DNA of 32,919 nucleotides from a virus. Taxonomy: Duplodnaviria; Heunggongvirae; Uroviricota; Caudoviricetes. This document shows positions 30,165 to 32,919 of this stretch, piece after piece. The notes under the pieces were generated by a model that made no database searches, was not told where the DNA came from, and saw only the letters and a list, made by a program, of their open reading frames with translations. Both the position numbers and the translations under genes were made by a program. The stretch lies in the IMG/VR virus record IMGVR_UViG_2690316321_000007; one strand, given 5' to 3'. Every line of letters starts with the position of its first letter. The stretch's first letter is position 1.

Positions 30165-30355
30165 TTCCAGACCCTCCGGCTTTTCAGAAAGGTCAGAGCC
30201 TTTTTTAACGGACTCTGTTTTTTGGTGCGGATAATGATTCCCTTACGCCCCTTACCGTGGGTGATGGTGAAGTCAATCGCCCTGGGGCTTTCGTTACGCA
30301 ATAACTGAGCAATACAACGAGGCTCATTCATACGGTTCTCCTTAACGTGGTTCAC
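30161..30355 (-). CDS. Small early protein (64 aa), P2 orf78 position
   Basis: Short basic ORF between cox and B. Confidence 0.55.
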   Translation of the reverse strand: MNHVKENRMNEPRCIAQLLRNESPRAIDFTITHGKGRKGIIIRTKKQSPLKKALTFLKSRRVWK

Positions 30356-30617
30356 CGAGACCTAACCACATCAACCAGCCGTCACGAATCTCTTTAGGAC
30401 GGCTTTCATAAGCCAGTTTTAGTCCGTTATTCCATGCCGGAAGGTATACCCAATATTCACCAGCACGCCCCGATACTGACTGAGGGTCAGTAATCTCAAT
30501 AACTGGTAATTTCCCTTTCTCAATCATGCCCCTTACAGCTCTTGGAGTTTTACCAATGAGTTTTGCAAACTCCTGATAAGGCACGGCATCAGTCACGCTT
30601 ACAAGCTGTCTATTCAT
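30342..30617 (-). CDS. cox: Cox, excisionase and repressor of the lysogenic promoter (91 aa)
   Basis: Length and position match P2 Cox; first gene of the early operon, divergent from C. Confidence 0.8.
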   Translation of the reverse strand: MNRQLVSVTDAVPYQEFAKLIGKTPRAVRGMIEKGKLPVIEITDPQSVSGRAGEYWVYLPAWNNGLKLAYESRPKEIRDGWLMWLGLGEPR

Positions 30618-30738
30618 CTGCTACGATTCTCCCTTAGTGCTTCTAATGGCTCCTAATGGCTAATTATTGCCTAAAAGGATAACTCCAGAAGCACAACATT
30701 TCACACTATCAGCAAGAAATTACGCAATCGGAGTAATT
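30618..30738. promoter_or_regulatory. Immunity switch region (divergent Pe/Pc) with tandem 10-bp direct repeats CTAATGGCT at 30643..30651 and 30653..30661 as candidate operator
   Basis: Intergenic region between divergent cox and C; two exact 9-of-10-bp direct repeats spaced one helical turn apart. Confidence 0.45.
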
Positions 30739-31038
30739 ATGTCAATAGACGTTTCGGAGAAGTTGAAGCTAATCCGTGAATCTGAAAGGTTAAACCGTAA
30801 AGAATTCAGTGAATTAACTGGTGTAGCCTACAGCTCACTTTCGAGCTATGAGAGCCGGTCAAAAAACGCTGGAGTTGAAGCCATAATGAAGGTCTTACAA
30901 CATCCCAGATTTACTAAATATACTTTGTGGTTCATGACTGATCAGGTAGCTCCAGAAGCCGGGCAAATTGCGCCCGCTCTCGCACACTTTGGGCAAAACG
31001 AAACAACGTCGCCCCACTCCGGTCAAAAGACTGGTTAA
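30739..31038 (+). CDS. C: Immunity repressor C (99 aa)
   Basis: Start chosen at the ATG with SD GGAG 8 nt upstream; length equals P2 C as recalled; a longer ORF from 30667 was rejected. Confidence 0.75.
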   Translation: MSIDVSEKLKLIRESERLNRKEFSELTGVAYSSLSSYESRSKNAGVEAIMKVLQHPRFTKYTLWFMTDQVAPEAGQIAPALAHFGQNETTSPHSGQKTG

Positions 31039-31153: not shown

Positions 31154-32167
31154 ATGGCAATCAAAAAACTCGATGATGGTCGATATGAAGTGGACATCCG
31201 CCCTACTGGACGTAACGGAAAACGCATCCGTAGGAAGTTTGATAAGAAAAGCGAAGCTGTCGCTTTCGAAAAATACACGTTGTACAACCACCACAATAAA
31301 GAATGGCTATCAAAACCAACAGACAAACGACGTCTGTCGGAACTGACACAGATCTGGTGGGATTTAAAGGGTAAACACGAAGAGCATGGGAAATCTAATC
31401 TTGGAAAAATTGAAATCTTCACAAAAATAACGAATGACCCATGCGCATTTCAAATCACGAAATCCCTTATCAGCCAGTACTGCGCCACCCGAAGAAGTCA
31501 GGGTATTAAACCTTCGAGTATCAATCGTGATTTAACATGTATTAGCGGCATGTTTACAGCCCTGATTGAAGCGGAGTTATTCTTTGGTGAGCACCCTATC
31601 AGAGGGACAAAGAGGCTTAAGGAGGAAAAACCAGAAACAGGCTATCTCACACAGGAAGAAATTGCCTTACTGCTTGCAGCACTTGACGGCGACAACAAAA
31701 AGATTGCGATTCTTTGCCTGAGTACAGGAGCACGTTGGGGAGAAGCAGCTCGTTTGAAAGCAGAAAATATCATCCATAACCGCGTCACGTTTGTTAAAAC
31801 GAAAACAAACAAACCACGCACCGTCCCGATCTCAGAGGCTGTTGCCAAAATGATCGCGGATAACAAACGAGGTTTTTTATTCCCTGATGCTGATTACCCT
31901 CGCTTCAGACGAACAATGAAAGCAATAAAACCGGATTTGCCAACGGGGCAAGCCACACATGCACTAAGGCACAGCTTTGCCACTCATTTCATGATTAATG
32001 GAGGAAGTATTATCACGCTACAACGGATACTAGGTCACACGCGGATTGAGCAAACTATGGTTTACGCTCATTTTGCGCCAGAGTACCTTCAGGACGCCAT
32101 TTCTCTTAATCCGCTAAGAGGTGGTACTGAAGCCGAGAGTGTCCACACAGTGTCCACAGTAGAGTAA
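31154..32167 (+). CDS. int: Tyrosine integrase (337 aa)
   Basis: C-terminal catalytic signature (...HALRHSFATH...LGHTRIEQTMVYAHF) typical of tyrosine recombinases; adjacent to the att core. Confidence 0.9.
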   Translation: MAIKKLDDGRYEVDIRPTGRNGKRIRRKFDKKSEAVAFEKYTLYNHHNKEWLSKPTDKRRLSELTQIWWDLKGKHEEHGKSNLGKIEIFTKITNDPCAFQITKSLISQYCATRRSQGIKPSSINRDLTCISGMFTALIEAELFFGEHPIRGTKRLKEEKPETGYLTQEEIALLLAALDGDNKKIAILCLSTGARWGEAARLKAENIIHNRVTFVKTKTNKPRTVPISEAVAKMIADNKRGFLFPDADYPRFRRTMKAIKPDLPTGQATHALRHSFATHFMINGGSIITLQRILGHTRIEQTMVYAHFAPEYLQDAISLNPLRGGTEAESVHTVSTVE

Positions 32168-32246
32168 CGTTTAAGGGCTTTCAGTGGTAATTTATGCCGC
32201 TCAAACCCGCATTGTACCGTTGAAAGCCCCTACTGGTGACACCCTA

Positions 32247-32274
32247 AATCTCCCTTACACGGGCTTATTTTTTA
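32247..32274. repeat. att core, right copy (28-bp perfect direct repeat)
   Basis: Identical to 1507..1534. Confidence 0.85.
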
Positions 32275-32601
32275 TGCATAAGCCCTATCCCTGGTCACCG
32301 TCTTCCATTGACCACATCGATAGAATCCTCCTTCATAGCACGATGCTTTTCACTTATCGACATCGTGCTCGCACAGGTTCCGGTTACGCACAGCCAGAAC
32401 GCGCATGTTTGACGCTTACCAAAAAATGAACCTAAAGCATTGGAACATTTTTGACATCATTTTCTGATGGCTGCATAAAATAAAAATTCTGCTTTAGTTT
32501 CATCTATCTGTTTGTCATTATTACTCACATTCAATAATGGTGTTGAAGAATATCCCATCACAGATAAAATAAATATGTGCATGGTAGTCTTGAATCTATT
32601 C
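32275..32601. other. Degenerate remnant resembling ogr-proximal phage DNA (possible relic of an older P2-like insertion)
   Basis: 32283..32320 (CTGGTCACCGTCTTCCATTGACCACATCGAT) resembles 1561..1596 (CTGGTCACGTCCACACATTGACCACATCGAC) immediately right of the left att copy; no intact ORF. Confidence 0.4.
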
Positions 32602-32919
32602 TCACTCTCCACATTTGAATGTCAGACGAGCGACGCCATGTAATCCTGCACCTTCTGTCTTCAGGTCAACTATCTGCATTTTTTTGCCCTGAGTAACACA
32701 GAAATGAGTTGCATCATTTTTTACTATATTTTCTGCACCAGATATTCTACCCCTGGCTAAAGAAGCTTCGGCTTCGGTGTAGTATTGGTTATCGAGTTTA
32801 CGCTGAATATTACTTTTATATGCAAGGCCAAATTTACCGATACTTGTCTCATCATTATGCACAGCACAACCAGACATAAGAAAAACACTAATTAATGATA
32901 TAGCAGCTATCTTTTTCAC
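32602..32919 (-). CDS. yegR: Small lipoprotein (105 aa, signal peptide with LMSGC lipobox); probably host yegR
   Basis: GTG start exactly at the window edge; MKKIAAISLISVFLMSGC signal/lipobox; size and position after the yegQ-cyaR locus fit E. coli yegR from memory. Confidence 0.55.
   Translation of the reverse strand: MKKIAAISLISVFLMSGCAVHNDETSIGKFGLAYKSNIQRKLDNQYYTEAEASLARGRISGAENIVKNDATHFCVTQGKKMQIVDLKTEGAGLHGVARLTFKCGE

Follow-up and report, generated by a model that had tools for sequence, protein, structure and literature searches.

The lysis-lysogeny switch of the P2 family is well studied, and its two regulators, C and Cox, bind different operators, each overlapping the promoter under its control (PMC1904268). 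The C repressors of this type bind direct repeats, each half-site taking a whole symmetric dimer (PMC1904268, PMC2995052), and in the mapped operators the centres of the two half-sites are separated by 22, 26 or 34 bp, with either the -10 or the -35 of the early promoter (Pe) lying between them (PMC1904268). The operator of P2 consists of 8-bp half-sites 22 bp apart around the Pe -10, that of Wphi of 10-bp half-sites 34 bp apart around the -10, and that of P2 Hy dis of 8-bp half-sites separated by 26 bp, with the Pe -35 between them (PMC1904268, PMC2995052); one of the Hy dis half-sites has a natural mutation (PMC1904268). The cox-boxes recognised by Cox share the consensus TTAAA(G/C)NC(A/C), start every 10-11 bases and overlap both the -10 and the -35 of the promoter Pc, and Cox polymerises to a filament that wraps about 70 bp of DNA (PMC3936717). 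Targets of P2 Cox contain at least six boxes. Here we analysed the region between cox and C in the virus record IMGVR_UViG_2690316321_000007, the whole 32,919-nt stretch of which is called the window, where the 9-bp sequence CTAATGGCT is directly repeated in tandem.

The region is a P2-family switch and thus already known biology; the P2 Hy dis class, to which its sequence points, was characterised in 2001 (Renberg-Eriksson et al. 2001, Virology 290:199, used here through the data taken up again in PMC1904268 and PMC2995052). Within this switch, the two CTAATGGCT copies are most probably the best-matched members of an array of Cox boxes phased at 10 bp (about 30638-30676) and lying over Pc. 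The direct basis of this reading was the sequence anatomy, the homology to the annotated features of P2, the pattern of conservation and the fit to the published geometry.

The tandem repeat and the array upstream of cox

Exact matching over the window found CTAATGGCT in exactly two copies, both on the + strand and both inside the 121-bp spacer that separates cox (-) from C (+). The distance from start to start was 10 bp, the spacing that the original prediction had stated for a range (30618-31038) comprising the spacer and the C gene, and a single base separated the copies; its description of a P2-type immunity region with divergent cox and C likewise agreed with the gene order and the homology. 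The chance level of such repeats was estimated by first-order Markov simulations of the window. An exact 9-mer repeat at a lag of 9-12 anywhere in the 33 kb was not rare (mean of 0.44 per window, at least one in 34% of the simulations), and one within the 121-bp spacer at a lag of 9-40 appeared in 2% of the simulations. Base identity in the segment 30625-30680 was highest at lag 10 (0.52) and lag 20 (0.47), other lags giving about 0.1-0.4. As the repeat was seldom produced by chance in the spacer and the periodicity peaked at lags 10 and 20, the two perfect copies are the clearest and sharpest part of a longer 10-bp-periodic array. When one mismatch was allowed, CTAATGGCT was not enriched in the window (4 found against 5.7 expected).

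Read on the cox-sense strand, the array was resolved into four boxes phased by 10 bp that together hold both CTAATGGCT copies (Table 1); the 9-mers represent the same array as the four boxes, with the register shifted and the strand reversed. Four phased units were found, and six clear boxes were not visible in the window array. In P2, the cox-sense strand carries TTAAACGCA, TATAAGACA and TAAAAGGCA, matching the consensus at 8/8, 6/8 and 7/8 positions, respectively, at 9-10-bp steps. Pairwise alignment with P2 placed the CTAATGGCT repeats on GCGTTTAATGTCTTATAATGCC, the stretch that contains the annotated Pc -10 of P2, and not on the P2 operator sites O1/O2. This GCGTTTAATGTCTTATAATGCC stretch formed an island of similarity in a spacer that is otherwise poorly alignable between P2 and the window.

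The conservation of the array was examined in a scan of one genome per species, which gave 30 loci with a P2-type Cox. The 26 loci kept, one of which was identical to the switch of the window, made up 27 sequences together with P2 and came from Escherichia, Klebsiella, Kluyvera, Enterobacter, Citrobacter, Buttiauxella, Erwinia, Rahnella and other genera. Over the 85 nt preceding the cox ATG, these sequences showed the consensus CATcTG.TAc..tTCTcc.tTaG..tgtt.ttAATtGCTcttAATggctt.TAATtGcc. The part ttAATtGCTcttAATggctt.TAATtGcc kept a constant distance to the cox ATG, and conservation collapsed further toward C. The C protein was recognisable in 21 of the 27 sequences (20 loci and P2), where it fell into 16 classes at an identity of at least 95% and into 11 at at least 85%. 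Since the array was kept over 16 C classes, it tracks Cox and not C. Per 54 nt, the arrays of the 27 loci contained 5.2 sites agreeing with the cox-box consensus at 6/8 positions or more, compared with 1.2 in random pieces of the window and 1.6 in shuffles; offsets 5/15/25/35 on the cox-sense strand accounted for most of these sites. In Wphi and L-413C, phages whose Cox is of another type, the cox-proximal half of the spacer had, as judged by eye, another sequence. The TTAAT(T/G)GC array of the 27 loci allows the Pc/Cox operator to be defined by comparison, whatever the C class, and could aid the automated annotation of P2-like prophage switches.

The multi-locus alignment also pointed to a candidate Pc -10 in the window (Table 1). 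The annotated Pc -10 of P2, TATAAT, occupies the position of the third box, and a perfect TATAAT was present there in the related loci L025, L032, L038 and L042 as well. Pairwise alignment instead set the TATAAT of P2 over 30652-30657. As the array is periodic, the position of the Pc -10 is ambiguous by a 10-bp register.

The attachment site gave a second view of Cox. The segment 32129-32274 of the window differed from the P2 attP (P' arm, Cox site and core) by one mismatch, at 32131; the part 32157-32273, which runs from the annotated Cox site through the core, showed no difference from P2. With an identical att Cox site, this Cox must act on P2's own site to excise. The encoded Cox was identical to P2 Cox at 76 of 91 residues (84%), which, taken with the identical att Cox site, leads us to expect the same box specificity; Hy dis Cox complements a P2 cox3 prophage (PMC3936717). 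Thus, the array is adjoined by the gene for a P2-type Cox whose att site is also of the P2 type. The sequence diverged into host DNA at about 32274 and was followed by yegR (32602-32919, -), and this succession from a P2 attP match to host yegR placed the prophage at the yegQ-yegR attachment site of P2. The sequence AGTGTCCAC occurred twice near this site at a lag of 11 (32138-32146 and 32149-32157), overlapping the 3' end of int; this pair was the only other exact tandem 9-mer at a lag of 9-12 in the window and coincided with the annotated P' arm-type sites for Int in P2.

A perfect 8-bp inverted repeat, GTGCTTCT / AGAAGCAC (30637-30644 / 30687-30694), brackets the box array, and the CTAATGGCT copies are located in the cox leader, about 50-70 nt downstream of the presumed Pe start. 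Both observations would suit a role of the repeats in RNA, within the cox (Pe) leader or where the convergent transcripts from Pe and Pc overlap, for instance in a regulatory stem-loop. Such a role was judged extremely improbable, because the 95-nt cox leader folded no better than its shuffles (z = -1.5; 16/200 shuffles as good), no Rfam match was obtained at E <= 1, and the inverted repeat showed no conservation among the related loci.

The probable C operator and immunity class

The original prediction had taken the CTAATGGCT pair for half-sites of the C operator. In support of this, its premise that P2-type C proteins bind direct repeats agreed with the literature (PMC2995052, PMC1904268), the two exact 9-bp copies fall within the 8-10 bp of known half-sites, and the repeat was improbable within the spacer, as described above. 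However, the 10-bp spacing departs from the 22, 26 and 34 bp of all mapped C operators, and the copies lie on the Pc side, 79-102 bp from the Pe -35, whereas the Hy dis half-sites flank that element. Furthermore, TTAAT(T/G)GC boxes were common to P2 and to 16 C classes; a motif shared by this phage and a heteroimmune P2 is not an immunity-specific operator. In addition, other operator-like pairs were not detected in the P2 and Wphi genomes (PMC1904268), and CTAATGGCT did not resemble TCGGAG(T/A)A, the pair with Hy dis geometry found elsewhere in the region. We therefore regard a function of the CTAATGGCT pair as C half-sites, whether of the primary operator or of a second one autoregulating Pc, as highly improbable. 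What stood of the proposal is that the repeats are probably an operator, but one for Cox and not for C.

The TCGGAG(T/A)A pair was located from the geometry of Pe. The Pe -35, TTGACA, was found at the same position as in P2, and almost every related locus had kept ATGTCAA or GTGTCAA where C starts. A TAATTT 17 bp downstream of TTGACA was taken as the probable -10, in the same layout as the annotated Pe of P2 (TTGACA-17-TAGTAT). A consensus promoter and terminator scan missed both Pe and Pc, the -10 of Pe failing its 4-of-6 rule. The repeat finder returned TCGGAGTAATT and TCGGAGAAGTT at 30728 / 30754, the positions of TCGGAGTA and TCGGAGAA, with a spacing of 26. In an exhaustive comparison at spacings of 15-40 bp, TCGGAGTA/TCGGAGAA was the sole 8-mer pair of at least 7/8 identity flanking the Pe -35, and TCGGAGWA was present in the 33-kb window in two copies only, both at these half-sites. 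The pair thus shows the properties of the Hy dis operator, namely direct half-sites of 8 bp that are spaced by 26 bp around the Pe -35 and differ by one mismatch. As a control, the same geometric reading recovered the annotated O1/O2 of P2 (two copies of ATCTAAAC, 22 bp apart, adjoining the C start) and the Wphi operator (two copies of GTCACCAATA, 34 bp apart around the -10).

These results suggested that the C operator consists of 30728-30735 and 30754-30761, about 80 bp to the right of the CTAATGGCT repeats, where the assignment of individual bases follows from the published Hy dis geometry. For annotation, the C operator of this class would accordingly be sought at 30728-30761, flanking the Pe -35, and not on the tandem repeat, while tandem repeats one helical turn apart beside cox would be read as boxes for Cox, the directionality factor. 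One half-site overlaps the Shine-Dalgarno sequence of C and the other its codons 6-8, so that both translation signals and the coding sequence limit how the operator can evolve in this class. A TCG serine codon in the half-site at 30754-30761 was specific to this class, relatives having TCA or TCT. Another arrangement was seen in L032, L038 and L042, in which the C recognition helices were almost the same as that of the window and the spacers carried ACTACGA units about 20 bp apart together with a TAGGAGTA/TCAGAGAA pair instead of two TCGGAG; the operator arrangement of these loci may differ despite a similar helix 3.

Immunity classes are defined by C proteins of at least 95% identity, a criterion of Karlsson et al. 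2006 that we take as quoted in PMC3448106. The C of the window was identical to P2 C at 64 of 99 residues (64.6%). The last 40 C-terminal residues were nearly unchanged, and the differences clustered in the N-terminal helix-turn-helix (HTH) half, including positions 30, 32, 33, 36, 40 and 41 of the recognition helix. C was therefore expected to be heteroimmune to P2, in line with the specificity unlike that of P2 that the original prediction had thought worth checking by alignment.

The switch agreed with P2 Hy dis in several properties. The published identity of Hy dis C to P2 C is 63%, compared with the 64.6% found here. The window shares with Hy dis a direct repeat (7/8) spaced by 26 bp around the Pe -35, with one natural mismatch, and its Cox has Glu at residue 33, as has Hy dis Cox (PMC3936717). 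The primer A3-44 (CCTTTCAGATTCACGG), by which the P2 Hy dis operator was amplified from plasmids with the Hy dis C-Pe-Pc region (PMC1904268), matched the C gene of the window at 16 of 16 positions (30774-30789, -) and had no other site in the window. A conflict was noticed at residue 25 of Cox, where Thr in Hy dis and Pro in Wphi are placed in the published description (PMC3936717), whereas the Cox of the window reads Thr24-Pro25 and the Pro of Wphi stands at 24 in the present alignment. The numbering in PMC3936717 is probably shifted by one position, which would explain the Thr25 and Pro25 statements alike. Hy dis was not named in the cluster names of C and Cox. On the whole, membership of the switch in the P2 Hy dis immunity class was strongly indicated by these sequence matches, and the same grounds make it plausible that the switch equals the one deposited for that phage (AJ306907).

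The C and Cox proteins and the cox-C spacer of the strain AS19-RrmA- were identical to those of the window, with the same yegR junction. We take AS19 to be an E. coli B derivative. In BL21(DE3), also a B strain, the yegQ-yegR site was empty; BL21 and REL606 presumably descend from a B line cured of the P2-like prophage. An E. coli B origin was thus not confirmed through BL21(DE3), in which the P2-like remnant at 872 kb was of the 186 type with CI/CII. This remnant (872-885 kb, L014) also contained a St85-family retron reverse transcriptase with its effector and was unrelated to the C-type switch of the window.

If the assignments are correct, Cox would be made from Pe, polymerise on boxes one helical turn apart, wrap the DNA and block RNA polymerase at Pc; the block of Pc would shut off C and int and lead to lytic growth. 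C would act elsewhere, two C dimers on TCGGAGTA (30728) and TCGGAGAA (30754), which are spaced by 26 bp around the Pe -35, repressing Pe. The binding of Cox and C in this phage, as well as the exact Pc -10, is proposed here from sequence comparison.

Strength of the assignment and neighbouring features

Several observations weigh against the reading of the locus as a Cox-box array in a switch of the Hy dis type. The boxes of the window taken alone were near background, with 2 matches of at least 6/8 per 54 nt against 1.2-1.6 expected. The pairwise and the multiple alignment differed by one 10-bp register for the candidate Pc, the consensus promoter scan returned no Pc, and the overlap of the array with Pc was drawn from homology to P2. 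A weight matrix built from the Pc array gave a single strong match in the att Cox site, so that the array motif may, and probably does, mix promoter constraints with Cox contacts. On the side of C, the upstream half-site read TCAGAG or TCTGAG in the close C relatives L019, L031, L032, L038 and L042, showing that the TCGGAG repeat is not strictly conserved. The identity between the C proteins of the window and Wphi was 49.5%, while 44% was published for Hy dis and Wphi. Lastly, the Hy dis class identity and the exact C half-sites were both reached through indirect matches.

The faint marking of the att Cox site by the Pc-array matrix would also be expected if the conserved periodic motif were only the Pc core promoter or a site for a host factor, duplicated by chance, in which Cox is not directly involved. 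The Pc -10 of P2 does lie inside the homologous array, the third box is a perfect TATAAT in several relatives, and only about two substitutions separate TTAATTGC/TTAATGGC from perfect identity. This explanation was nevertheless considered unlikely, since a promoter has no need of three or four equally spaced copies of a motif, and since the 10-bp phasing and the 3- to 4-fold, one-strand enrichment of cox-boxes are the known signature of Cox binding, found over Pc in P2 (PMC3936717). The array is expected to serve both as promoter and as Cox operator, and the promoter-only explanation overlaps in part with the Cox-box array more than it forms a true alternative to it.

Taking the array as Cox boxes, the perfection of the tandem repeat can be accounted for in a simple manner. 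Most relatives have TTAATTGC as box 1 and TTAATGGC as box 2. Box 1 of the window differed from the common TTAATTGC at two positions, giving the 9-bp identity to box 2, a variant that some relatives carry as well. The repeat thus stands out because about two substitutions in this lineage made the two boxes identical. It is very unlikely that this identity is adaptive, as a high-affinity nucleation site for cooperative Cox binding or a second, non-canonical C site autoregulating Pc. Complexes of Hy dis C with DNA migrate anomalously and dissociate in three phases (PMC1904268). An adaptive box 1 would make the Hy dis-type switch mechanistically unlike that of P2.

The right end of the window is a P2-like (Peduovirus) prophage arm composed of cox, the spacer, C and int (Table 1). 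For C, a 123-aa open reading frame (ORF) beginning with TTG (30667-31038) was rejected as an over-extension across the switch, the 99-aa ATG form aligning end to end with P2 C. The over-extended 123-aa form has been deposited for E. coli W as 'repressor protein C' (ADT75726). An 812-bp segment spanning cox, C and the spacer was 100% identical to Escherichia phage vB_EcoM-720R8, and the 401-bp core of the switch was found at an identity of at least 95% in 349 of 5426 complete E. coli genomes (about 6%), with 339 records at 99% or more. An 81-aa GTG ORF (32184-32429), which crosses the att core and the host junction, is entered as 'hypothetical protein' in vB_EcoM-720R8 (ON470606.1, L002 3343-3812) and is probably spurious. 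The vB_EcoM-720R8 record looks prophage-derived with a host flank, as it continues into host yegR.

Table 1. Features of the cox-C switch and its surroundings, in coordinates of the window
Feature	Position	Strand	Basis
Repeat copy 1, CTAATGGCT	30643..30651	+	exact match; rank 2 of ~66,000 window positions by weight matrix from other loci only
Repeat copy 2, CTAATGGCT	30653..30661	+	exact match; rank 3 by weight matrix from other loci only
Probable Cox-box array, 4 boxes phased 10 bp, cox-sense strand; holds both CTAATGGCT copies	30638..30676	-	consensus, periodicity, homology
Box TTAGAAGCA	30646->30638	-	6/8 to consensus
Box TTAGGAGCC	30656->30648	-	5/8 to consensus
Box TAATTAGCC	30666->30658	-	4/8 to consensus (hand count)
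Box TTTTAGGCA	30676->30668	-	6/8 to consensus
Candidate Pc -10, AATTAT	30662..30667	+	homology; third box in multi-locus alignment
Pe -35, TTGACA, overlapping C start	30740..30745	-	sequence; same position as annotated Pe -35 of P2
Putative Pe -10, TAATTT	30717..30722	-	17 bp downstream of TTGACA; layout as annotated Pe of P2
Putative C half-site TCGGAGTA, between Pe -35 and -10, overlapping C Shine-Dalgarno GGAG	30728..30735	+	repeat family D1, spacing 26; Hy dis geometry
Putative C half-site TCGGAGAA, upstream of Pe -35, in C codons 6-8 (Ser-Glu-Lys)	30754..30761	+	1 natural mismatch to partner
cox, 91 aa, P2-type Cox (Pc repressor and excision directionality factor)	30342..30617	-	ORF list; Pfam Phage_Cox PF10743, E = 1.7e-42
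C immunity repressor, 99 aa	30739..31038 (ATG at 30739)	+	PDB 2xcj/2l49 (P2 C), E = 2.5e-39; Pfam HTH_3
int	31154-32167	+	
Cox-binding region of att P' arm	32157..32230	.	identical to P2

Comparison with known switches

Besides Hy dis, a close known system is the Pe-Pc switch of P2 (AF063097; PMC3936717). The two agree in gene order, in their face-to-face promoters and in a TTGACA Pe -35 that overlaps the C start. The window array aligns with TTTAATGTCT TATAATGCCT TTTAGTGCC of P2, which carry the Pc -10 and strong matches to the cox-box consensus, and the att Cox site is identical. They differ in the C operator, read as TCGGAG(T/A)A with 26-bp spacing flanking the -35 in the window and ATCTAAAC with 22-bp spacing flanking the -10 in P2. 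The boxes of the window also fit the consensus less well than those of P2, and two of its adjacent units are identical over 9 bp.

More distant parallels are provided by Apl of phage 186 at pR-pL and by lambda Xis, small winged-helix proteins acting as excisionase or repressor on arrays of direct repeats with a spacing of about 10 bp, at att and between the switch promoters (PMC7498355). Apl and Xis belong to another protein subfamily and have another recognition sequence than the Cox considered here, and the switch of 186 uses a lambda-like CI on inverted repeats, unlike the direct repeats of the P2-type C.

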